A stretch of 64,000 nucleotides of DNA from an uncultured Chloroflexia bacterium. Lineage in GTDB: Bacteria > Chloroflexota > Chloroflexia > QHBQ01 > JADMIH01. The position numbers and the translations under genes are program-made. The notes under the pieces were generated by a model. The model had not been told where the DNA came from and did not search any database. It saw only the letters and a program-made list of their open reading frames with translations. Location of the stretch: NCBI GenBank assembly GCA_963797095.1, contig CAWCNY010000002.1, positions 1,216,001 to 1,280,000 of the forward strand, read 5' to 3'. Shown piece by piece: positions 53,416-64,000 of the stretch (positions are counted from its first letter, which is position 1; every line of letters starts with the position of its first letter).

Positions 53416-55902
53416 TTATTCGAGGCCCTTCAGGGAGGCCAGGGGCCACAGGTGGTATTCGATCTCGGCTAACCCAGCTCTTACTACCGCGTCTACTACT
53501 TCCTGGGCCGGTTTGTAGCACTCGTCGGACTCGTCGAGGGGGACGTCGGCTGCGGCGTTGACTATTATGCCCGCTTTGGCGTAGCGCTTGTTGACTTCTT
53601 TCTGGGAAAGTTCGCGCTTGGCGGCTGAGCGGGACATGCGGCGTCCAGCGCCGTGGTTTACCGAGAAGCCGCTTCGGACCGCGCCGGGCAGCGGGCGGAG
53701 GACGAAGCTGTAGTCGTGGTTGCTGCCTGGGATGAGGATGGGGTGGCCGGTGTCTTCCCAGACAGTGCCTTCGAGAGCCGGGTAGCCTGCGGGGAAGGCG
53801 CGAGTGGCACCTTTGCGGTGTACCCACACCTCTCCATAGTCGGGATGCCACTCTTTTTGCACGAGGTTGTGGCTGATCTCGTAGATTAGCTCAAGGTCGG
53901 CCTTGAAGACCTCGCGGAACGCCTCGGCGATCTGCTGGAACAGGATCAGCCGGTTGATGATCGCGAAGTTGCCCCCGGCGGCTACGGCGTTCAGGTAACT
54001 GCGGTAGTGTTTGGAGTCGGGAGTGAAGTAGCCCATGTCGAGGTGCTTGATGCGGTCGGGCTCTTCCTCCTGTGCCATGTGGAAGTAGTTGGTGGCGAGG
54101 CCATGACCGAAGCCCCGGCTCCCGCTGTGCACCTGCACGAAGAGGGTCTGAGTTTCTTCGCTGCGCTGTAGCTCTATGAAGTGATTTCCTCCACCGAGAG
54201 AGCCAAGTTGTGGTATTCCACGCTCCGGCCGGCCTCTGCCTCCCCACGGTATCTGCCATTCTTCGTCTACGGGGATGCGGTTGCGTTCGGCGCGGCTGCG
54301 GTCGAAGGGTGCGCCGTAGCGCGAGATGTAGTAGTCGGCTCCGCCCTTGATGATCTTAACGAACTCATCCTCGGAGAGGGAACGGAGGGTGGTCTTGCTC
54401 TTGCCCCCCGCGCCCATCTCCACGCGTTGCATGACCGCGCGATTGAAGGCTAGGCGGCGTTCGGGGGTGGCGGCGTCGGCGGGCACATTGGACCTGGCGG
54501 AAACCATCCCGCAGTTGTGGACGAACACACCTGCTTCGAGCGCGAAGTTGCCATAGCCTGGGACCGTCAGGCAGTAGACATCCTCTCGATGAACTAACAT
54601 CTCGACCGCCACTACTTTGTGGTTATAGCCATGTTTGTAGCGACGGTGGCTGTGGATGCCAAAGCCTCCTCCCGGTATGACCTCGCCACAGGTTTCGCAG
54701 GTGTGGGACTTGTGAGCAACCTCTGAGGACTTCCTGCGTCCGGTTTCCGATTGGTTATAAGCAATCAGATAAGCCTTGTCGCGTTCCCCATTACCTGCTA
54801 CCGATGCCTTGAAGTGCTCAGGATTCCTCGCCATATACGTGAGTATATTGCGGGTACCTCTCTCGGCCATGTAAGCATAGCCCTCTTCAGTTTGAGCTTT
54901 TGCAGCGAGTGCGGCTTTCCTTGCTGTCTCGAATGCTTCGGACTGGAAGTGCGAATTGCGCTCGCGGAGGCTCTTATGGTAGGCCGTATGGTCGCGGTTC
55001 CCCATAAATGCAAGATTGGTAGGGCGATTATCTGTGGGTGTGAAGTTGCGGTGGTGTATGACGGTCTTCTGTCCATCAAACGAAGGTATTTCGCCCGGTA
55101 ACCCACCTCGGGCCATTATCGAATGCACCCGCTGATCGTTTTCATTGCCTGGGTGGCGCACAACTGTGTAACCGTCACGATCGGTATGTGAGCGGAATGG
55201 CATCAGAGATGTTCCAGGCTGAAGTTCGTGGGCCTGGCGATAGGCACCATCTCGTAGCATGAATTGATGGTTGGGGGTGCAGGTGATTTCGCGGCCATTG
55301 TCGAGGGTGACCTTCACAAGAGAAGCATCCGTGCGGGTTCTTTGGGCGGTGGCGTGGGCCACCACAATTTTGTGGTTGCTATCAAGCGCGTATACATGCA
55401 AGCTCTCTTCTCTATTCACAAGCTCCGCGATTGGATACGACTTACCATCTGCCGTGGGAACAAGTGTATCGCCCGTGAAACAGCCGATGTCATAGCCGAC
55501 CGGACCCATTGCCAGCGTGCCATCGGTGAGGATGACGGAGCCTACCGGCACACCGTAGCCGAAGTGTGCGTCGGGTGTGATTACCACTAGCTTGACGCCT
55601 GGAAAGCGTGTGGCGTTGACGATCTGAGTGTAAAGCACGTCCTCGGCTTCGTCGAGGAGTTTCTGGGTGAAGAAGAGGCGTACAGGCACATCGCCTGTGT
55701 CCTCGGTCTGAAGGTCGAAGTAGCCTTCGGGGTTCTGTCGGACAAGCCACTTCCAGTCGTGGGTGTGGATGATCTTGTCGGGCCGCTTGCCCTCGGATGT
55801 AGCCTGGGCTACCATCTCCTCTTGCGCCTTGGCGTCTATTTTCGCCTGCGTAATGGGAGACGGGATCATGTGCGGCTTGAGCTTTGTTTTCTTTTTAGCC
55901 AT
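53416..55902 (-). CDS. rtcB: RtcB RNA ligase (intein-containing)
   Basis: PDAHFGYGVPVG, VGYDIG/CG, GSLGGGNHFIE, VHSGSRG, SHN, HRKGAT, HGAGR, DE...YK. Confidence 0.95.
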   Translation of the reverse strand: MAKKKTKLKPHMIPSPITQAKIDAKAQEEMVAQATSEGKRPDKIIHTHDWKWLVRQNPEGYFDLQTEDTGDVPVRLFFTQKLLDEAEDVLYTQIVNATRFPGVKLVVITPDAHFGYGVPVGSVILTDGTLAMGPVGYDIGCFTGDTLVPTADGKSYPIAELVNREESLHVYALDSNHKIVVAHATAQRTRTDASLVKVTLDNGREITCTPNHQFMLRDGAYRQAHELQPGTSLMPFRSHTDRDGYTVVRHPGNENDQRVHSIMARGGLPGEIPSFDGQKTVIHHRNFTPTDNRPTNLAFMGNRDHTAYHKSLRERNSHFQSEAFETARKAALAAKAQTEEGYAYMAERGTRNILTYMARNPEHFKASVAGNGERDKAYLIAYNQSETGRRKSSEVAHKSHTCETCGEVIPGGGFGIHSHRRYKHGYNHKVVAVEMLVHREDVYCLTVPGYGNFALEAGVFVHNCGMVSARSNVPADAATPERRLAFNRAVMQRVEMGAGGKSKTTLRSLSEDEFVKIIKGGADYYISRYGAPFDRSRAERNRIPVDEEWQIPWGGRGRPERGIPQLGSLGGGNHFIELQRSEETQTLFVQVHSGSRGFGHGLATNYFHMAQEEEPDRIKHLDMGYFTPDSKHYRSYLNAVAAGGNFAIINRLILFQQIAEAFREVFKADLELIYEISHNLVQKEWHPDYGEVWVHRKGATRAFPAGYPALEGTVWEDTGHPILIPGSNHDYSFVLRPLPGAVRSGFSVNHGAGRRMSRSAAKRELSQKEVNKRYAKAGIIVNAAADVPLDESDECYKPAQEVVDAVVRAGLAEIEYHLWPLASLKGLE
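54514..55482 (-). mobile_element. 323-aa intein with HNH-type endonuclease inserted before the RtcB catalytic Cys
   Basis: CFTGDT N-terminus, ITCTPNH block B, VYCLTVPGYGNFALEAGVFVHN|C C-terminus; central VIHHRNFTPTDNRPTNL..H (HNH). Confidence 0.92.
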
Positions 55903-55998
55903 CTGGGTCCTTTCGTTGCGATCTTCTCTTTGCAAGGGTTGGTTGAATTGTACAATTGAAACTGCCTGATTGGATAGACAAGTGGACGGCGTGATTCG

Positions 55999-56512: not shown

Positions 56513-56596
56513 CGGAAGCGGCAGGACTCGAACCTGCAAAGCCCGAAGGCTCTAGCTGTTTAGCAAACAGGCTCCTGATCCAGCCGGATCACTTCC
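56513..56596 (-). tRNA. tRNA-Ser(GCU), non-canonical, no encoded CCA
   Basis: GGAAGTG/CGCTTCC-G; anticodon loop TTGCTAA; long variable arm GAGCC-TTCG-GGCTT; GCAGGTTCGAGTCCTGC. Confidence 0.85.
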
Positions 56597-56685
56597 ATTT
56601 CAGATTTCAGATTTCGGATTTCTGCTGGTTCTACATTCCGCGTCTAAAATCCGAAATCTGAAATCTAAAATCCAAAATCGATCTG

Positions 56686-56758
56686 TGCCTCCGGCAGGAC
56701 TCGAACCTGCAACCCACGGTTTAAAAGACCGCTGCTCTGGCCGTTGAGCTACGGGGGC
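56686..56758 (-). tRNA. tRNA-Lys(UUU), no encoded CCA
   Basis: GCCCCCG/CGGAGGC-A; GCTC/GAGC D-stem; GCGGT-CTTTTAA-ACCGT; T-arm. Confidence 0.9.
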
Positions 56759-56825
56759 GTGATATATAAGTGGTTGTGGTATCATGGTGTAGTGTGGCGT
56801 GGCACCCCACCGGAAAGGTGATACC

Positions 56826-57347
56826 ATGCGAACAGTGATAATGGCGTTTTGCACGCTATTTGTGTTGTGCCTTGCGGGGTGCGGGTCCGATGAGGGTGTG
56901 CCCTCTACGCAGGTAGAAGTTCTGCATATACAGGCCATGTTGCCAGGTACGGATTGGCACAAGGCGAGCACCGAGAAGAAGGGCGAATTTGAGACGGAGC
57001 GCTGGGAAAACGGCGATGGTACGCTCTTTTTCAGGGTGGCGGATGCTCCTGACGATGCACTGAGCTATCCGCTTATCCAGGCTAGCTCCGTTGCTCAGTA
57101 TATGGCGGTGATGGATTTCCCACCTTCAACCCTGGTGGAAGATTCAACGATGCTTGGGCGTAGCGCCCTGCGTATGGAGGGGGTTTCGCCTGAGAGCGAC
57201 GCTTATCACACGGTCGATTTCGTGTTTATCGCCGGCCTTCGCCATTTCTTCGTGGGTGCAGGCGCAGCCAATTCGGTTTGGGATGCGGGTGGGTCGGATA
57301 CCGTGTACGCCATAATCCAGAGTGCGAAGCTGGCTATAGTCAAGTAG
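56826..57347 (+). CDS. Hypothetical lipoprotein
   Basis: Lipobox LAGC; AAAGGTG RBS. Confidence 0.7.
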   Translation: MRTVIMAFCTLFVLCLAGCGSDEGVPSTQVEVLHIQAMLPGTDWHKASTEKKGEFETERWENGDGTLFFRVADAPDDALSYPLIQASSVAQYMAVMDFPPSTLVEDSTMLGRSALRMEGVSPESDAYHTVDFVFIAGLRHFFVGAGAANSVWDAGGSDTVYAIIQSAKLAIVK

Positions 57348-57374
57348 GAAATTGAACCAAGACGGTTGGAGTAT

Positions 57375-57415
57375 AGGCCACGACAGCGTGCCTGGAGTTC
57401 ACGCCATCGCGGCCC
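57375..57415 (-). other. 16-bp RNA hairpin right after tRNA-Ile(UAU)
   Basis: GGGCCGCGATGGCGTG/CACGCTGTCGTGGCCT pairs fully only on the minus strand (G-U wobbles). Confidence 0.6.
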
Positions 57416-57417
57416 GG

Positions 57418-57490
57418 TCGGCGCGCCCGGAGTTGAACGGGGACCGTCTGTTTATAAGACAGATGTGCAGTACCGCTACACCACACGCCG
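57418..57490 (-). tRNA. tRNA-Ile(UAU)
   Basis: CGGCGTG/CGCGCCG-A; TCTGT-CTTATAA-ACAGA; T-loop TTCAACT (one C-C mismatch in the T-stem). Confidence 0.8.
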
Positions 57491-57567
57491 GGGAGTTTGG
57501 AGCTCGAAGTTTGAGGTTTGAAGTTCCGACTACCGATTACCAGCAACTTCAAACATAGAATCTGGCT

Positions 57568-57653
57568 TGGAGGAAGCGGGGAGGCTCGAACTCCCAAGAC
57601 CCGAAGGTCCAGCCGTTTTCGGGACGGTTTGCTCACCAATTCGCATCGCTCCC
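57568..57653 (-). tRNA. tRNA-Ser(CGA), non-canonical (A8, C33, U73)
   Basis: GGGAGCG/CGCTTCC-T-CCA; loop CCCGAAA; variable arm GGACC-TTCG-GGTCT; GGGAGTTCGAGCCTCCC. Confidence 0.8.
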
Positions 57654-57737
57654 TTGGGGACGGACGAAAGACGAAAGACGAATATAAGGAGTTTGTTTGA
57701 TCGTTCGTCTTTCGTCCTTCCGTCATTTGTCGTACAG

Positions 57738-58307
57738 CTAACCCGGCAGGTAGGGCTGCCACTCTGCTACCAGTTCACCGCTGGCGGTGAAGCGGCGCAG
57801 GATTGCGTAAGGGTTGGGGCGCGGTTCACGTGGGACGGAGCGCAGACGCATCTTTGCCTGGTCGGGGGTGCGCTGCCCCTTCTTGTGATTGCAGTTGGAG
57901 CATGCCGACACGAGGTTGTCCCAGGTGTGGCGGCCACCCTTCGAGCGCGGAAGGATGTGGTCCAGGGTGAGGTCGCGGGTGTGCTTGCCGCAGTATTGGC
58001 AAGTGTAGTTGTCGCGCAGGAAGATCTCATGCCGGGTCAGGGATACTCGGCGTTGCGGGTGGCGCACCATGTACTGTAGCCGGATTACCGACGGGCATTC
58101 CACAATAGTGGATGGTGCGCGTACCATGCCTTCGCTGAACTCCAGCACCTCTGCCTTGCCGGTGAGAGTGAGAGTCAGTGCGCGCCGGGTGGAGCAGACG
58201 TTGAGAGGCTCGAAGTTCTGGTTCAGCACCAGCACAGGCGCGGCCAACAGGTCGATTGCGGATTTTAGATTGCTGACTGCGGATTGATTCTGTAGTTCGT
58301 CTATCAT
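57738..58307 (-). CDS. HNH endonuclease (McrA-like)
   Basis: VLVLNQNFEPL, RDNYTCQYCG, TLDHILPRSKGG..TWDNLVSACSNCNHKKG. Confidence 0.92.
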   Translation of the reverse strand: MIDELQNQSAVSNLKSAIDLLAAPVLVLNQNFEPLNVCSTRRALTLTLTGKAEVLEFSEGMVRAPSTIVECPSVIRLQYMVRHPQRRVSLTRHEIFLRDNYTCQYCGKHTRDLTLDHILPRSKGGRHTWDNLVSACSNCNHKKGQRTPDQAKMRLRSVPREPRPNPYAILRRFTASGELVAEWQPYLPG

Positions 58308-58445
58308 GAATTTGTATTCGGTATGTTGGCCGCGCCTGAGAGGGCGTGTCCAGGGCCTTTATGTCTCCTTTCTTGGGATTTTGGAATTGGAGTCAGGCTA
58401 ATGACTTGGACTTTCGTCGTTCGTCTTTGGTCCTTCGTCCGGTTG

Positions 58446-58521
58446 TGGTGTACCTGGGATGGCTCGAACATCCTACCTGCGCTGTATCAGAACGCTGCTC
58501 TACCGGGTGAGCTACAGGTAC
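58446..58521 (-). tRNA. tRNA-Ile(GAU), divergent
   Basis: GTACCTG/CAGGTAC-A-CCA; GCGTT-CTGATAC-AGCGC; GGATGTTCGAGCCATCC. Confidence 0.85.
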
Positions 58522-59500: not shown

Positions 59501-60825
59501 GTTGGTGTATTATCTTTTCTGTAAATTGGGAAATGTGGACCGGCTGAGATAGACAGCAGGTCAGGGTGTATCCTTTGAGTTGCGAAACACCAAAAGGAGG
59601 GCACCCATGACCTACCAGCCAGATTATACGTTATCGCAGGAACTGTTGGAACGTCTCAACGAAGAAGGATTAGACGCTTTACCAGAGATGATTCGAATCG
59701 TCATTAACTCAGCTATGCAAGCTGAGCGGCTCAAATAGTTGGGTGTTGGTGCTCCTTACGAGCGCTCTGCGGAGCGGCAGGACCAGTCCAACGGTTACAA
59801 GCCAAAGACGCTCAAGACCAGAGTGGGTGAGATTACCTTCTCTGTGCCCCAGGTGCGACAGGGCGACTTCTACCCTGGAGCCCTGGAGAAGGGACTGCGC
59901 TCGGAGCGTGCTCTCACACTGGCGTTGGCAGAGATGTACGTGCAAGGGGTCTCGACGCGCAGAGTGGCAGCCATCACCGAGAAGCTATGCGGTACCCAGG
60001 TATCCAGTGCTGCAGTGAGCCGAGCTGCCTCCCAGTTGGACGAGGTGCTGGAAGGGTGGCGCAACCGACCGCTGGGGGAGTGTCCCTACCTTATCCTGGA
60101 TGCCCGTTATGAGAAGGTGAGGCAGGACGGGCAGGTGAGAGACGCTGCAGTGCTGATTGGTATTGGCATCACCCGTGCAGGGCGACGGCAACTGCTGGGA
60201 GTATCGGTATCTTTGAGCGAGTATGAGGTGCATTGGCGCACCTTCCTGCAGAGCCTGGTATCGAGGGGGCTATCAGGAGTGAGGATGATAACATCCGACG
60301 CTCATGAGGGGCTGGGGGCAGCACGCAAGGCGGTATTCGGAGGAGTGCCCTGGCAGCGGTGCCAGTTTCATCTGCAGCAGAATGCCCAGGCTTATGTTCC
60401 CCGGCAGGAGATGAAAGCTGAGGTAGCCCAGGACATTAGAGCCATCTTCTCGGCATCATCATTGGAGCAGGCCAAACAGATGCTGGACAAAGCGGTTGCG
60501 AAGTATGAGAAGAGCGCTGCTCGCCTATCGCACTGGCTGCAAAACAACATCTTGGAAGGGTTGACCGTCTTTGCCCTCCCACAATCACAGTGGCGATCCC
60601 TTCGCACCACCAACGGGCTGGAACGCATCAACCAGGAGGTACGCCGGCGGACCAGAGTGGTGGGGATCTTCCCCAACGAGGCGAGTTGCCTGCGCTTGGT
60701 GACGGCAGTGCTGATGGAGATCAGCGACGAATGGGAGACAGGCCGAGCTTACATGACTTTTGACTACTGATTGACCAATTTAGAGGAACACCCTGACCAA
60801 TTTACAGAAAAAGGCTTGCATAATC
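59501..60825 (+). mobile_element. IS256-family insertion sequence
   Basis: Imperfect 29-bp TIRs sharing TTTTCTGTAAATTGG; 9-bp target duplication TTCTGATAG (59492-59500 and 60826-60834). Confidence 0.92.
59607..60770 (+). pseudogene. IS256 transposase with an in-frame TAG at 59736-59738
   Basis: ATG 59607 after an AGGAGG RBS; ...ERLK*LGVGAPYERS; EMYVQGVSTR, ILDA, SDAHEGL, WQRCQFH, RTTNGLERINQE. Confidence 0.88.
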
Positions 60826-60980: not shown

Positions 60981-62642
60981 TTATGCTATTTCACCAGTGA
61001 CAAAGTCCGACATAATTGCTGGTGCATTAGCGTCAAAACCTACTACGTCGAGCATGCCCGCGTCGTCTGGGTCCGAGATGGAAAAGCCGTTGGAGGTCAT
61101 ACCTACGACGATCATCTTGGCCGGGATACCCATCTTGTCGCGGTACTGGCGCAGGGCCTCTGCCGGGTGCGGCTTGCCTGCCCAGGTCTCCGAGTCGGTG
61201 TAGACAACGAAGACGTCGGCCTGGACCTTGTGATTCATAGCCCACTTCATCGGGAGAGCGCAGTCGGTGCCGCCCATCGGGATGGCCGAGGTGGTCTTCA
61301 CCACGTCGTCCAGCCGCTGGCGCGGGCTGATGTTGACCGGGGTGATACCCGGGTCGCCGCCGCCCCATTGGCCGCCGATTACACCCTTCGATGGAGCCGA
61401 GAAGGCCACGATGGTGTGGTCCTTCTCGACCGCCGCGGTTACGAGCGCCATTGCGGCGCTGCCGGTGCGTGCGTCGAGGCCGGGGATACCCGCGATCATG
61501 CTGCCGCCCATCGAGCCCGACACGTCGAGCGCCAGCAGCCAGCGCTTGTTGGTTGGCTGCACAGCGCCAAAGGCGATGTAGAATGCGTCGTTGAGGGCGT
61601 CGATTACGGGGGTTACGGGAGTCCAGCGCAGCTTGCCGCGCTCGCCCCGGCCCTGTGCGTAGGTCTTGATGGCTGCCAGCACCTTGATTGGGTGCAGACG
61701 TGCCTTGATGATACGGTCCTTCTTGCCCAGTTCGGCGACAACCTTGCGGGTCGCGTCGCTCATGGGCGCAATGAGGCCAACATCGGTCATCTTAGCCAGG
61801 TTGCGGATCATGGCCTCCATCGGCATGTTTGCCAGCAGGATTTCCCAGATGTCGCGGCTGTTGAGCCACTGGGTCGGGATTGCCTCGCGAGGCAGGTTGT
61901 AATCGAGGATGAGGCCCAGCACTTCGTTTTCGGTCTGAGCGCGCTTTGCTCGCTCGAACGCCCACAGGAGGCGAAGGTTCTCGTCCGGGTGTGGCTCGTC
62001 GCCTACCCACTCCCAGCCGTTCACCATCCAACCGTAGATGATCTCGTGTACGTTGTCTACCGGCTTCGGGTGGGCCAGGCGCAGGAGGTCGCGGTGCGAC
62101 CAACCGTCGCGCTGCTGGTACTTGATGGCTTGAAGAGCTAGCTTGTCCGCGGGCTGTGCATACCACTTGGCAACAGCCTCGCGCAGGCCACGACCCCAAC
62201 CGCGCAGACCGTCTACGTACTGTGCAAAGTGGAAGAGGTGGGTGCCGATGCGGCACACTCGCGGCAGGGCATCGAAAGCTGCTCGCTTGGTAGCGGCGTC
62301 GCCGTAGGTCGCTGCTAGAGCGAGGGCGAAGATCGCCGGGTCGTTTTTGGGTGCGCGGCCTGCCTCCGAGATTGCGACGATGCGCTCGACTGCGCGCTGG
62401 CCGTCTTCCTTGATGCAGTGAATAACTGCGTTGGCGTTTTCGGCGGTGAGGGCCTTTTCGGTGATGTAGTAGGTGCCGCCCTCGCTGCCCAGGATCAGCC
62501 ATCTATCGAGACGCATCCAGTCGTCGACCGTCCACGAGTAGCCGCCGCCGCTGTTGGCAACCTGGTCGCTGCCCGGTATCGGCTGGCTCTGCGGGGTGTC
62601 GTTTGCCTGGATGCTCTTTACAAAGTTGGTGATGTTCTTCAT
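60981..62642 (-). CDS. rsr: Ro60/TROVE + vWA RNA-binding protein (Rsr)
   Basis: NSGGGY, RWLILGSEGGTYY, RIGTHLF, GWGRGLR, KYQQRDGWSHRDLLRLAHP, DVSGSM, GGTDCALPM, VYTDSETW; GGAG RBS before ATG 62642. Confidence 0.96.
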   Translation of the reverse strand: MKNITNFVKSIQANDTPQSQPIPGSDQVANSGGGYSWTVDDWMRLDRWLILGSEGGTYYITEKALTAENANAVIHCIKEDGQRAVERIVAISEAGRAPKNDPAIFALALAATYGDAATKRAAFDALPRVCRIGTHLFHFAQYVDGLRGWGRGLREAVAKWYAQPADKLALQAIKYQQRDGWSHRDLLRLAHPKPVDNVHEIIYGWMVNGWEWVGDEPHPDENLRLLWAFERAKRAQTENEVLGLILDYNLPREAIPTQWLNSRDIWEILLANMPMEAMIRNLAKMTDVGLIAPMSDATRKVVAELGKKDRIIKARLHPIKVLAAIKTYAQGRGERGKLRWTPVTPVIDALNDAFYIAFGAVQPTNKRWLLALDVSGSMGGSMIAGIPGLDARTGSAAMALVTAAVEKDHTIVAFSAPSKGVIGGQWGGGDPGITPVNISPRQRLDDVVKTTSAIPMGGTDCALPMKWAMNHKVQADVFVVYTDSETWAGKPHPAEALRQYRDKMGIPAKMIVVGMTSNGFSISDPDDAGMLDVVGFDANAPAIMSDFVTGEIA

Positions 62643-62763
62643 TCTTTCTCCTTTCGGCCCCTTTGGGGCAAGATTTGTATTTGATAGCCGGTAGCCGGAA
62701 GTTCCAGGTTCCAGGTTCCAAGTTTCTGGTTGTGACTGCTGGCTACAGTGATAGCGTAGAGAT

Positions 62764-62814
62764 TCCTCCGCCGATAGAATATGGCTCTGAGCGCGGTATT
62801 CTATCGGCGGAGGA
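62764..62814. other. 18-bp perfect inverted repeat between the Y-RNA array and rsr
   Basis: TCCTCCGCCGATAGAATA/TATTCTATCGGCGGAGGA. Confidence 0.75.
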
Positions 62815-62823
62815 CCGCGAAAC

Positions 62824-63068
62824 GAGGCGGTCAAGAGACGCATTGGGAGACAATCTGGACGTTGGCTTGCGGCCTGTTCCAGCTATGTACCTCCGGCAAC
62901 CCCGGCTGGCGGGCAGTTACCTTCGGATTGTCTTGCTTCCCGGCGAATAAACCCCCGATGCGGGAGAACCCGGCCTGTTATTGGCCTCGTGGTCTGGTAG
63001 CAGTTCGCCTCTTGCTGATCCGGTTTGGGTTGGTCATGATAGGTAACCCAATAGCAGCGTACCGCCTC
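62824..63068 (-). ncRNA. Y-RNA-like element 1 (long, ~245 nt)
   Basis: 5' GAGGCGGUACG-CUGCUAUUG-GGUUACC ... CCCAAUGCGUC-UCUUGACCGCCUC 3' terminal pairing with the Ro-binding bulged helix. Confidence 0.75.
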
Positions 63069-63095
63069 AATTCCATGATACCACTACGATTGTTT

Positions 63096-63206
63096 CCCCG
63101 GTAGTCAAGGGGCGTAATGGCCGAGATTCGCCCAGGCATGAAGGGGCCTGAGCTTAGGATTTGAACCTGTGCAGGCCGATAACCCATGTACAACGTACCA
63201 CCAGGG
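63096..63206 (-). ncRNA. Y-RNA-like element 2 (YrlA-like, T-arm first)
   Basis: CCCUGGUGGUACG...GGGUUAUC...AGG-UUCAAAU-CCU...CUUGACUACCGGGG. Confidence 0.8.
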
Positions 63207-63324
63207 TGGGGGTGGGAGGGATCGAACCTCCGTTTTCGGGTCCCGTTAATCATCACCTGACGGCCCTGAAGGCAAGGTAACGATGATGAGTTTGCCCGCT
63301 GTGCTGCCACTACACTACATCCCC
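63207..63324 (-). ncRNA. tRNA-ended (circularly permuted) Y-RNA-like element 3
   Basis: GGGGAUG/CACCCCC-A acceptor, GUGU/GCAC D-arm, GGAGGUUCGAUCCCUCC T-arm; anticodon replaced by a long arm ending in CCUUGCC-UUCA-GGGCCG. Confidence 0.75.
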
Positions 63325-63397
63325 GATTTGGGTATTGATGGTAATTACGACTTACGAATTATGTGTCATTCCGACTACCGACTACCGACAGTACCGA

Positions 63398-63489
63398 GTG
63401 CAGGCGAATGTTGTTCAAGGGTTGTCTGATCAGGCAAAGCCCGGTCAGCCCTGTGGTGGACTGATAACCCTGTGAGCCGCGGCCCGCAC
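63398..63489 (-). ncRNA. Y-RNA-like element 4
   Basis: GUGCGGGCCG...AGGGUUAUC...CCCUU...UUCGCCUGCAC. Confidence 0.7.
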
Positions 63490-63510
63490 GCTGTTCTGTT
63501 CGTTTCTTTT

Positions 63511-63661
63511 CAGGCAGTCAAGGATGGCGTTTTGGGGTTTCTGGGGTGTGGGACTTGCACCTACTCTGTGGGTCTTTCACCCACTTTCAGCCCGCGAGTG
63601 CTGTTTTGCCATTTTCGCCATTTTCAAGATGGAAGATAACCCAAAACTGCGTACCGCCCTG
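63511..63661 (-). ncRNA. Y-RNA-like element 5 with an internal D-loop-like then T-arm-like domain
   Basis: GGCGGUACG-CAGUUUUG-GGUUAUC...GGCGAAAAUGGCAAA...GUAGG-UGCAAGU-CCCAC...CCCAAAACG...CCUUGACUGCC. Confidence 0.75.
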
Positions 63662-63680
63662 TATATTCGAGAAGAAGTGT

Positions 63681-63768
63681 GCCGGTGGGCAAGGGACGTG
63701 TTGGGAATGACTTTCGTCAAGCAGATTCACAGTCTGAGGGGTAACCCATACACTGCGTACCACCGGGC
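63681..63768 (-). ncRNA. Y-RNA-like element 6 (short)
   Basis: CCGGUGGUACG-CAGUGUAUG-GGUUACC...CCCAACACG...CCUUGCCCACCGG. Confidence 0.75.
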
Positions 63769-63781
63769 AACCATGTTTTGT

Positions 63782-63899
63782 TGGGGAGCAGCGGGAGTCG
63801 AACCCACGCAACCTCCCGAAGGAGGGTATCTATCCTCTGATAACCGTCAGCGGACGGCCCTTGAGGGCAAGGGATGTTGACGGGGTTTTACACTCCCCA
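63782..63899 (-). ncRNA. tRNA-ended (circularly permuted) Y-RNA-like element 7, no D-arm, long variable arm
   Basis: GGGGAGUG...CCGUCA..CCCUUGCCC-UCAA-GGGCCG..UGACGGUUAUC...CCUCC-UUCG-GGAGG..GUGGG-UUCGACU-CCCGC-UGCUCCCCA. Confidence 0.72.
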
Positions 63900-63911
63900 T
63901 GAGTGTGGTTC

Positions 63912-63984
63912 TGGCGGTCAAGGAACGCTCCCGGTGTGGGAGTTGAACCCATGTGCACCGGTAACCGGAAGCACCGTACCACCA
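63912..63984 (-). ncRNA. Y-RNA-like element 8 (minimal, T-arm only)
   Basis: UGGUGGUACG-GUGCUUCC-GGUUACC...UGGG-UUCAACU-CCCA...GGGAGCG..CCUUGACCGCCA. Confidence 0.78.
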
Positions 63985-63987
63985 TTG

Positions 63988-64000
63988 TGGAGACGGAGGG
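63988..64000 (-). tRNA. Probable 3' end of another tRNA or tRNA-like element cut by the window edge
   Basis: Reverse complement CCCTC-CGTCTCC-A fits a T-stem 3' strand, acceptor strand and discriminator; too short to be sure. Confidence 0.35.

Follow-up and report, generated by a model that had tools for sequence, protein, structure and literature searches.

A candidate Y RNA in tRNA topology upstream of rsr in an uncultured Chloroflexia bacterium

Upstream of rsr, the gene of the Ro60 ortholog Rsr, a 64,000-nucleotide (nt) stretch of DNA from an uncultured Chloroflexia bacterium (C2:1216001-1280000 of a 6.02-Mb genome; hereafter the window) carries an element, here called U1, that combines the core of a tRNA with a Y-RNA module in the place of the anticodon loop. 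We put the probability at roughly 75% that U1 is a real and conserved non-coding RNA gene whose product would be a Y RNA in tRNA topology, cut out in the manner of a tRNA and putatively bound by Rsr. The start codon of rsr follows U1 on the same strand at a distance of 565 nt, an adjacency expected of a Y RNA, and four further insert-bearing units (U2-U5) belong to the same array. The initial annotation had described U1 as a tRNA/Y-RNA hybrid; the hybrid structure and the tie to rsr held up, but U1 proved not to be a typical member of its family, since most of its relatives keep a 7-nt anticodon-like loop.

The tRNA core and Y module of U1

The Rfam tRNA model RF00005 aligned with U1 end to end (model positions 1-71) at 45.1 bits, above its gathering score of 29 (window E = 2.3e-6), which places U1 among cloverleaf RNAs. 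The acceptor stem with an A-C mismatch, the A discriminator, the D arm and the T arm named in the initial annotation were all found (Table 1). The mismatch is at pair 5 of the seven-position acceptor stem. The D arm carries A14, G15, the D-loop GG and A21 and is followed by A26; the anticodon stem GCGGG/CCCGA has four pairs and one G.A, and the variable loop, AAAC, is 4 nt long. All tRNA-elbow nucleotides (U8, A14, G15, D-loop GG, A21, C48 and T-loop UUCGA) are intact. CCA is not encoded in U1, the discriminator being followed by CCC/CCCU, and the genome itself holds two genes of the PolyA_pol family (CCA-adding type). The unconstrained minimum free energy (MFE) structure, at -39.1 kcal/mol, is a cloverleaf with a long anticodon arm. 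ARAGORN made no call for U1 in default mode and, with introns allowed, reported 'tRNA-Arg(acg)' with an intron at 32. A promoter and terminator scan of the minus strand near U1 gave nothing above shuffle expectation.

U1 falls outside the class of decoding tRNAs, which have a 7-nt anticodon loop, U33 and an anticodon. In the RF00005 alignment, a 53-nt insertion within the anticodon loop replaces it, and because U1 has no anticodon loop it cannot decode. This insertion is the extended arm with CCUUGCC-UUCA-GGGCCG that had been noticed at the outset. A covariance model of the Y module or arm alone (R2) matched the module with 36.9 bits (E = 5.8e-5 genome-wide), and a second model, built for the whole tRNA-framed unit (R1), gave U1 a score of 74.1 bits. 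Within the module, the Ro-type hairpin pairs GCC(U) with (G)GGC, followed by a bulged C and then a G-U pair. The bulged helix of Y RNAs is present, as GGCCGUCAG with CCUUGCC; it is not made by the 5' and 3' ends of the RNA, its strands being contiguous across a UUCA(G) loop. Here the 3' strand comes first and the 5' strand after the loop, whereas the open-ended Y RNAs of the array begin with the 5' strand. The order of motifs over all of U1 is acceptor 5' strand, D arm, Ro 3' strand, loop, Ro 5' strand, variable loop, T arm and acceptor 3' strand.

The five units of the array diverge widely in their tRNA parts and have in common C-UUGCC-loop-GGGCCG-NNGG-N-UGAKGRUUAWC. A search with the Rsr protein gave 80 loci in named public assemblies, mostly metagenome-assembled genomes, and the locus set for pattern and model counts comprised 81 rsr loci. 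In this set, the core GGCCG was present in 30/32 closed modules and in 91/143 open Y candidates. The distance from CG to UUA was 11 nt in 28 of the 32 closed modules and in 99 of the 143 open candidates, a further 36 of which had 10 nt, and the opposite strand CUUG(N)CC occurred in closed modules and open candidates alike. Because core, spacing and partner strand match those of open Y RNAs, including those of the array, the insert is identified as a Y-RNA stem module, in agreement with the earlier suggestion that a loop joins the two strands of a Ro helix here.

YrlA (RF02553; Salmonella Typhimurium, Mycobacterium smegmatis) resembles U1 in its place beside rsr and in joining a Ro stem with a GNCG motif to a tRNA-like domain. 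This domain likewise has a D arm, a T arm, an acceptor-like stem and a variable loop, and the Ro stem runs into the position of the anticodon stem. YrlA is tRNA-like and bound by Rsr, with the GNCG motif forming part of the Ro-binding strand (Chen 2014), and has been likened to a tRNA that is circularly permuted and has its acceptor stem closed (Wang 2018). Its order is Ro 5' strand, variable loop, T arm, closed acceptor, D arm and Ro 3' strand (Chen 2014; Wang 2018). The motif order of U1 is a circular permutation of this published order, as the initial annotation had it in calling U1 the opposite permutation; the accessible text of Chen 2014 has 0 occurrences of 'permut'. YrlA ends at the Ro stem and has a loop-closed acceptor and a T arm 5' of the D arm, whereas U1 ends at an open seven-position acceptor and has a loop-closed Ro helix and a D arm 5' of the T arm. 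In M. smegmatis, RNase P cleaves YrlA and CCA is added to it; as predicted for U1, this is a Y RNA whose 7-bp acceptor stem is handled by tRNA enzymes like the end of a tRNA (Chen 2014). The cut opens the closed loop, and the resulting RNA consists of two pieces and has an open Ro stem, whereas U1 would be a single chain with a free acceptor and an undisturbed Ro helix. In Cyanidioschyzon and some archaea, permuted tRNA genes (cited in Wang 2018) show that a tRNA and its circular permutation are interconvertible gene forms, but these genes give rise to decoding tRNAs by way of a circular intermediate, and no such processing is implied for U1. Open-ended Y RNAs, both in the array and at other rsr loci, share with U1 a GGCCG or GUACG core, a spacing of 10-11 nt to GGUUAYC, the CUUG(N)CC strand and the location. 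They differ in that U1 has the strand order swapped, the helix closed by a loop and a full tRNA frame as effector module. We class the U1 family as a Y-RNA/tRNA-mimic variant with non-permuted topology and not as a member of YrlA.

A tRNA body is also used as a carrier in the engineered tRNA scaffold, where it receives a foreign hairpin that is thereby cut out and stabilised, and in MALAT1/mascRNA a tRNA-like structure marks a cleavage site. The former is artificial and the latter eukaryotic, whereas the passenger of U1 is a Ro-type helix in a bacterial rsr operon.

The family of tRNA-framed units and its linkage to rsr

In many Chloroflexota loci, and in some others, pattern scans located the insert immediately upstream of rsr, and R2 found 75 sites at E <= 0.01 in the 81 loci. 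At least 56 tRNA-framed units were counted, in 28/81 loci. For this count all seven acceptor pairs had to form within the unit (7/7), a strict rule adopted because R1 also matched stretches of Verrucomicrobiota that are tandem open YrlA-type RNAs. The top 150 R1 matches included 77 long rows, of which 54 satisfied the rule, and U1 and L056:8666-8787 (6/7 each) were added to these; 56 is a lower bound because U5 ranked below these top 150. The units are conserved and covarying. By record title, the loci are from the Chloroflexota (Chloroflexia, Anaerolineales, Ardenticatenaceae, Caldilineaceae and Promineifilaceae), with one each from four further phyla: Armatimonadaceae, Abditibacteriaceae, Actinomycetota and an assembly labelled Cyanobacteria. 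A regular-expression census of closed modules (131 rows in 61 loci) was noisy, taking in junctions of neighbouring open Y RNAs and chance matches in coding sequence, and its counts were not used.

The Verrucomicrobiota loci (L032, L033, L045, L050, L065 and others) carry tandem open YrlA-type Y RNAs ~1 kb upstream of rsr. These arrays close half a repeat out of register, with a short-looped acceptor hairpin (for example CUCGCG-UUCGG-CGCGAG) and open Ro stems. Their long R1 matches were rejected as tRNA-framed units. Inside a unit no more than 3-6/7 acceptor pairs are made; the acceptor 3' strand has its complement in the following unit, and every Ro 5' strand finds its 3' partner further downstream. 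The weak R2 matches there (E 4e-4 to 5e-3) are the same junctions. The order of motifs in the DNA is identical in tRNA-framed and open YrlA arrays; what differs is which complementary segments close. Two loci depart from the usual layout in other ways. At L021:11762-13784, in a Chloroflexia assembly, rsr has six or seven tRNA-framed units downstream of it and on the other strand, whereas elsewhere they lie upstream on the same strand. The unit at L086:2073-2275 (Anaerolineae) holds ~75 nt extra inside the closing loop of the Ro helix, with GGUAAUCGGU / ACCGAUUAC-like repeats, which indicates that this loop tolerates large insertions.

The structure of the family was read from a MAFFT alignment of 19 tRNA-framed units (A2). 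It consists of the acceptor, the D stem, a two-pair outer anticodon stem (27-28 with 42-43), the helices H_a and H_b, the bulged Ro-type helix, an inner anticodon stem and the T stem. Pairing held in 93.5% of cells, compared with 35.8-51.9% when partners were slid by 1-3 columns, and both-side changes were found in 19/33 pairs, a value as high being reached in 0/500 shuffles. H_a is CCAUC/GAUGG, with the variants UCAUC/GAUGA, CCGUC/GACGG, CCCUC/GAGGG and UCCUC/GAGGA. In a second MAFFT alignment, of 33 modules drawn from different lineages (A4), pairing was 88.6% versus 28.6-51.5% in slid controls. The pair that closes the hairpin beyond GCCC/GGGC was CG in 12 rows, AU in 8, GC in 6, UA in 3 and UG in 2; because it covaries, closure of the hairpin is read as being under selection. 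In an alignment of 146 distinct rows fitted to the model, whose counts lean towards that model, the pair beside the bulged C was U-G in 63 rows, C-G in 11 and U-A in 1, and the other pairs of the Ro-type helix had one-side changes only, bar one pair with both-side changes in 3/146 rows. A Ro-type helix nearly invariant in sequence and flanked by covarying helices would show the pattern of a protein-binding site.

In most units of the family, a short hairpin comes after GGUUAYC, with an anticodon-like loop of 7 nt, and the two nt after position 26 pair with the two nt past this hairpin (GC/GC, GG/CC, GA/UC, CC/GG, GU/AC). Such units are therefore read as tRNAs in which a Y module, as an additional arm, interrupts the 5' strand of the anticodon stem between positions 28 and 29, forming a three-way junction. 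The 13 Chloroflexia-type units of A2 have near-identical tRNA bodies and keep Y32, U33, R37 and A38 in 13/13 each, with ten different triplets between them (ACU, AUU, GUU, AGC, CUU twice, CGG, UUU twice, UGA twice, GUG and UCU). Several of these triplets start with A, which is unusual for decoding tRNAs. The statement on the 13 units was read from A2; an automatic loop finder, which takes the longest stem, gave the same tendency over 63 long rows with some rows mis-assigned. Two candidate identity marks were rejected: G3:U70, as for alanine, is not conserved (pair 3:139 is AU in 7, GC in 6, GU in 4 and CG in 2), and an 8-bp acceptor with G-1:C73, as for histidine, occurs with anticodons other than GUG. 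In another set of units (U5, L011:9630-9738, L016:997-1099, L035:1046-1151 and L014:9824-9928) the anticodon hairpin is absent and the module sits directly in the place of the arm.

U1 is a third form, in which a full anticodon stem and an internal loop precede the module and a remnant, CGGG-A-CCCG, is left at the site of the inner stem and loop. It is a derived form without an anticodon loop and atypical of the family. Its one close ortholog, L010:9059-9176 (83% identity; the genome is probably G037), was the only other match among 40 genomes of the order. The ortholog acceptor, GGAGACA/UGUCUCC, differs from that of U1 on both sides of pairs 3, 6 and 7, and the mismatch at pair 5 is repaired. 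Its anticodon stem, UCGGG/CCCGA, begins with U-A where U1 has G.A, and the layout is kept.

In the 6.02-Mb genome, the strict arm motif had 5 matches, all in the U1 locus and on the same strand, and R2 returned these five sites and no others at E <= 1. R1 gave 45 matches, those of more than 100 nt being the five units only. R2 found the module in 0/150 other genomes of a phylum-wide sample. In a class sample of 151 genomes, which are related and hence not independent and include three positive genomes flagged unpublished, the module was found in 17 and the TROVE domain in 21. Both were present in 16 genomes, the module alone in 1 (G121, 73% complete), TROVE alone in 5, and neither in 129. In the 16 double-positive genomes, the listed module matches lie on the TROVE contig, on the same strand and 0.3-5 kb upstream of rsr, apart from extra matches on other contigs in G049 and G130.

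The array upstream of rsr

At least six open-ended Y-type RNAs lie between rsr and the window end. They follow the pattern 5' GGYGGUACG...GGGUUAYC with 3' ...CUUGACYRCC, or have the GGGCCG/CUUGCC variants. Five of them, including both flanks of U1, were folded, and each paired its own ends. The flank downstream of U1, element 2, begins 4 nt (CCCU) after the U1 discriminator, so the close abutment seen at first reading was real; its 5' motif is confined to the locus, except for one looser match on another contig. An open Y 5' core within 14 nt of the discriminator recurs in 18/56 units, several of which encode CCA directly before it. This recurrence fits the role in punctuating the array that the initial annotation had proposed, but 38/56 units are without a following open Y RNA. 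U2 has an acceptor (GGGGAGU/GCUCCCC), a T arm and a module, CCCUUGCC-CUCA-AGGGCCG...GACGGUUAUC, with no clear D arm, and the model prefers an alternative 5' end at 63932. Rows of the array scan include weak RF01684 matches.

Table 1. Positions of U1, its parts, the neighbouring features and related units. Positions are window coordinates unless preceded by a locus name; L009 is the locus of U1.
Feature	Position	Strand	Remarks
rsr (Ro60 ortholog)	60981..62642	-	Pfam vWA_Ro60 7.2e-64, TROVE 2.5e-47
Last open-ended Y-like RNA before rsr, GGCGGUACG...UCUUGACCGCC, ~243 nt	62825..63067	-	paired termini by script
Element 2, open-ended Y RNA, 5' GGUGGUACG...GGGUUAUC, 3' CCUUGACUACC	63100..63203	-	ends pair in MFE structure
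U1, tRNA-framed Y RNA (candidate), 118 nt	63207..63324	-	tRNA core, Y module in place of anticodon loop
U1 acceptor 3' strand CACCCCC and discriminator A	63207..63214	-	then CCCU
U1 T arm GGAGG-UUCGAUC-CCUCC	63215..63231	-	Rfam tRNA alignment and MFE structure
U1 Y module: H_a (UCAUC/GAUGA), H_b, closed Ro-type helix, end UUAAC	63245..63290	-	R2
U1 closed Ro-type hairpin CCUUGCC-UUCA-GGGCCGUC	63259..63277	-	GGCCG core, CUUG(N)CC partner
U1 anticodon-stem 5' strand GCGGG	63295..63299	-	pairs with 63236-63240 (CCCGA) in Rfam alignment and MFE structure
U1 D arm GUGU-AGUGGCA-GCAC (preceded by U8 A9)	63301..63315	-	sequence and Rfam tRNA alignment
U1 acceptor 5' strand GGGGAUG	63318..63324	-	pairs with 63208-63214 (CACCCCC)
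Open-ended Y-like RNA upstream of U1, GUGCGGGCCG...GGGUUAUC...CCCUUGAAC...GCCUGCAC	63397..63492	-	ends pair in MFE structure, z = -2.68
Open-ended Y RNA, GGGCGGUACG...CCUUGACUGCC	63512..63659	-	script and fold
Open-ended Y RNA, CCGGUGGUACG...CCCUUGCCCACCGG	63683..63768	-	script and fold
U2, second tRNA-framed unit	63783..63898	-	R2 46.8 bits; R1 47.4 bits for 63783-63932
Short open-ended Y RNA with T-arm-like hairpin, GGUGGUACG...CCUUGACCGCC	63912..63985	-	script and fold
U3, 3' end (unit cut by window end)	63988..64000	-	whole unit L009:3988-4111; R1 126.2 bits, R2 54.0 bits
U4	L009:4544-4678		beyond window; R1 88.1 bits, R2 55.9 bits
U5	L009:4695-4809		beyond window; R1 36.8 bits, R2 43.2 bits
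Examples of units with the 7-nt loop frame	L009:3988-4111, L010:9637-9759, L017:4353-4473, L014:9658-9779

Directly upstream of the array of Y RNAs and hybrids, past the window end, are 21 ordinary tRNA genes on the minus strand (L009:4811-7690, corresponding to window coordinates 64811-67690), many of which encode CCA. They comprise Phe, two Pro, Asp, two Gln, three Arg, Asn, Tyr, Val, two Glu and Cys, together with Ala, His, Met, Leu, Gly, Trp and Lys. Because housekeeping tRNAs are found elsewhere in the genome, this looks like an accessory 'L-array' joined to the rsr/RtcB island. Published L-arrays are likewise accessory arrays of ~20-25 tRNA genes beside RNA-repair genes; the accessible text of the L-array paper reports no Y RNAs or tRNA/Y hybrids and has 0 occurrences of 'Ro60' and 'Y RNA'. 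Past the 21 tRNA genes lie unrelated genes (BatA/VWA, a methyltransferase and RecJ).

The spacers of the array (L009:2701-7186; window 62701-63625 and beyond) hold period-7 tandem repeats of 2-6 copies each, with 15 different heptamer units such as GTTCCAG, CCGACTA, ACGAATG, GGTAGTC and AGGATGA. They resemble the heptamer STRR repeats of cyanobacteria. Between the last Y-like RNA and the ribosome-binding site of rsr, the minus strand has a perfect 18-bp inverted repeat (UCCUCCGCCGAUAGAAUA ... UAUUCUAUCGGCGGAGGA, 62764-62814), followed by GGAACCU heptamer repeats and no U tract; it may be a processing or regulatory hairpin. Directly downstream of rsr, a Mutator-family transposase gene on the plus strand (59739-60770; 4.5e-107) splits rsr from the tRNA/RtcB part of the island. 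Four tRNA genes on the minus strand lie between rsr and rtcB (56514-58521; Ser-gct, Lys-ttt, Ile-tat and Ile-gat), with an open reading frame for an HNH endonuclease among them (57738-58307); tRNA-Ile(tat) has an unusual bacterial anticodon. The gene of the RNA ligase RtcB (53416-55935, minus strand) is interrupted by an intein, RtcB matching in two stretches (4.7e-91) and Intein_splicing with 5.1e-22. A search of sequencing runs for the stretch returned no RNA run, the sole listing being a soil DNA run with a 0.12 share of words.

Alternative explanations, proposed working and meaning

Several observations weigh against U1 being an Rsr-bound Y RNA in tRNA form. Its fold energy is ordinary for its composition (z = -0.35; 59/200 shuffles were equally good), and therefore energy alone gives no support. 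The register of the arm that is best in energy (-37.7 kcal/mol) differs from the one conserved in the family (-30.7 kcal/mol); from our reading of A2, the family register is the only one open to the ortholog. In U1 the helix that closes the hairpin is minimal, with 3-4 pairs, and the counts for the Ro-type helix carry the lean towards the model mentioned above. After GNCG, U1 has UC where the published GNCGAAN0-1G has AA; the local open Y RNAs are without AA as well. The YrlA model RF02553 (gathering score 69 bits) had no match in 61500-64000 at E <= 10 and over the whole genome gave six weak matches of at most 24.6 bits, none in the U1 locus; nor did the Rfam Y-RNA families match in the locus. 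Known Ro-Y RNA complexes use a helix with free ends, and the expression, RNA ends and Rsr binding of U1 are all predictions from sequence.

Could the gene instead be that of an ordinary tRNA, from which the 53-nt arm is excised as an intron, for example by some endonuclease with the RtcB of the locus as ligase? RtcB is encoded ~7 kb away in the same island, ARAGORN with introns allowed took 3/5 units for intron-bearing tRNAs, and for most of the family a cut-out between 28 and 29 would yield an entire tRNA whose anticodon loop has 7 nt. However, no excision of U1 gives a 7-nt loop with U33 (the flanks are GCGGG-CAAAC... and ...ACGGGA-CCCGA), the U1 insert starts after position 32 and not 37/38, no bulge-helix-bulge motif was seen on inspection by eye, and no Rfam group I intron matched. 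The insert is also the part of the unit most conserved in sequence and matches a Y-RNA stem, the opposite of what is expected for an intron, and units without an anticodon hairpin recur, as listed above. We regard excision as very unlikely. It is just as improbable that U1 is a misreading across two adjacent open YrlA-type Y RNAs, in which one would supply the half with the D arm, the other the half with the T arm, and the 'loop' would be their spacer. Exactly this happens in the Verrucomicrobiota loci, where a tRNA-frame model matches across junctions. In U1, by contrast, the acceptor strands pair within the unit and have both-side changes in the ortholog, and the family as a whole has its 54/77 rows with complete acceptors and its covarying hairpin-closing pair. 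Because the five folded neighbours pair their own ends, the flanks leave no free partner strands and U1 is not misread across them.

A reading in which the tRNA shape is a processing and stability scaffold only, recruiting RNase P and 3'-end processing while the hairpin binds a partner other than Rsr or nothing, is somewhat more probable but still unlikely. It would suit the open Y cores that closely follow 18/56 units and the position of U1 in an operon-like array with 21 ordinary tRNAs, and binding of Rsr to the hairpin is a prediction. Yet punctuation needs no conserved insert, whereas this insert is conserved and copies the Ro-binding stem; in 38/56 units no open Y RNA follows, and rsr is present in 16/17 module-bearing genomes. 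The least probable alternative, and one we give hardly any weight, is a decaying tRNA pseudogene with a chance insertion. The missing anticodon loop, the A.C mismatch in the acceptor, the shuffle-like fold energy and the single close ortholog in 40 genomes would be expected of such a relic. Against it, the ortholog keeps every helix through both-side changes, the insert fits a family model with 0 matches in the 150 other phylum genomes, and the tRNA-elbow nucleotides of U1 are all intact.

If U1 is a Y RNA in tRNA topology, as we favour, it would be part of the transcript of the tRNA/Y-RNA array that precedes rsr, and RNase P at its 5' end and tRNA 3'-end processing at its 3' end would release it. 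Cleavage on the 3' side would at the same time generate the 5' end of the next open Y RNA, 4 nt further on. Rsr would bind the internal hairpin, and the tRNA-shaped body would act as a stability and effector-binding module, as proposed for YrlA (Wang 2018).

A bolder proposal, which as a whole we consider rather doubtful, is that the members of the family are Rsr-tethering tRNAs. RNase P and the CCA enzyme would mature them, and they would have a free acceptor end and an anticodon loop that is mostly kept. They might serve as ribotoxin decoys or sensors that couple tRNA damage to the Rsr/RtcB island. The combination of a fixed loop frame and a free triplet in the 13 Chloroflexia bodies would fit decoys or sensors for anticodon-loop ribotoxins. 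Under the same proposal, three grades could be surviving steps from tRNA to Y RNA: a tRNA with an extra Ro arm, an arm that replaces the anticodon loop, and open YrlA arrays, all with the same linear order of motifs. If this transition is true, its steps differ by a half-repeat shift in which complementary segments close.

To our knowledge, every bacterial Y RNA form described so far has its acceptor stem closed and its Ro stem at the ends of the RNA. The ancestors of bacterial Y RNAs are believed to be tRNAs, perhaps dimeric tRNA transcripts, and a model cited in Wang 2018 derives YrlA from such dimers. In the literature consulted (YrlA, Thermus phage Ro60, a 2026 preprint on tRNA mimics, the L-array and a mycobacterial survey, to the extent of their accessible text and outside bacterial Y RNA reviews and the supplementary species lists of Chen 2014), no description of a tRNA-framed or loop-closed Y RNA was found. 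Such genes are now invisible, or are mis-called as a 'tRNA with intron' or a pseudo-tRNA, and the models R1 and R2 would allow them to be annotated. The family raises the questions of whether Rsr acts on a loop-closed helix, whether its members are cut, CCA-tailed and charged like tRNAs, and what use a tRNA body with a free 3' end would have for Rsr. With open acceptor ends, a closed Ro helix and an anticodon loop that is often kept, this family of opposite topology offers concrete intermediates for comparison under the hypothesis that Y RNAs descend from tRNAs.

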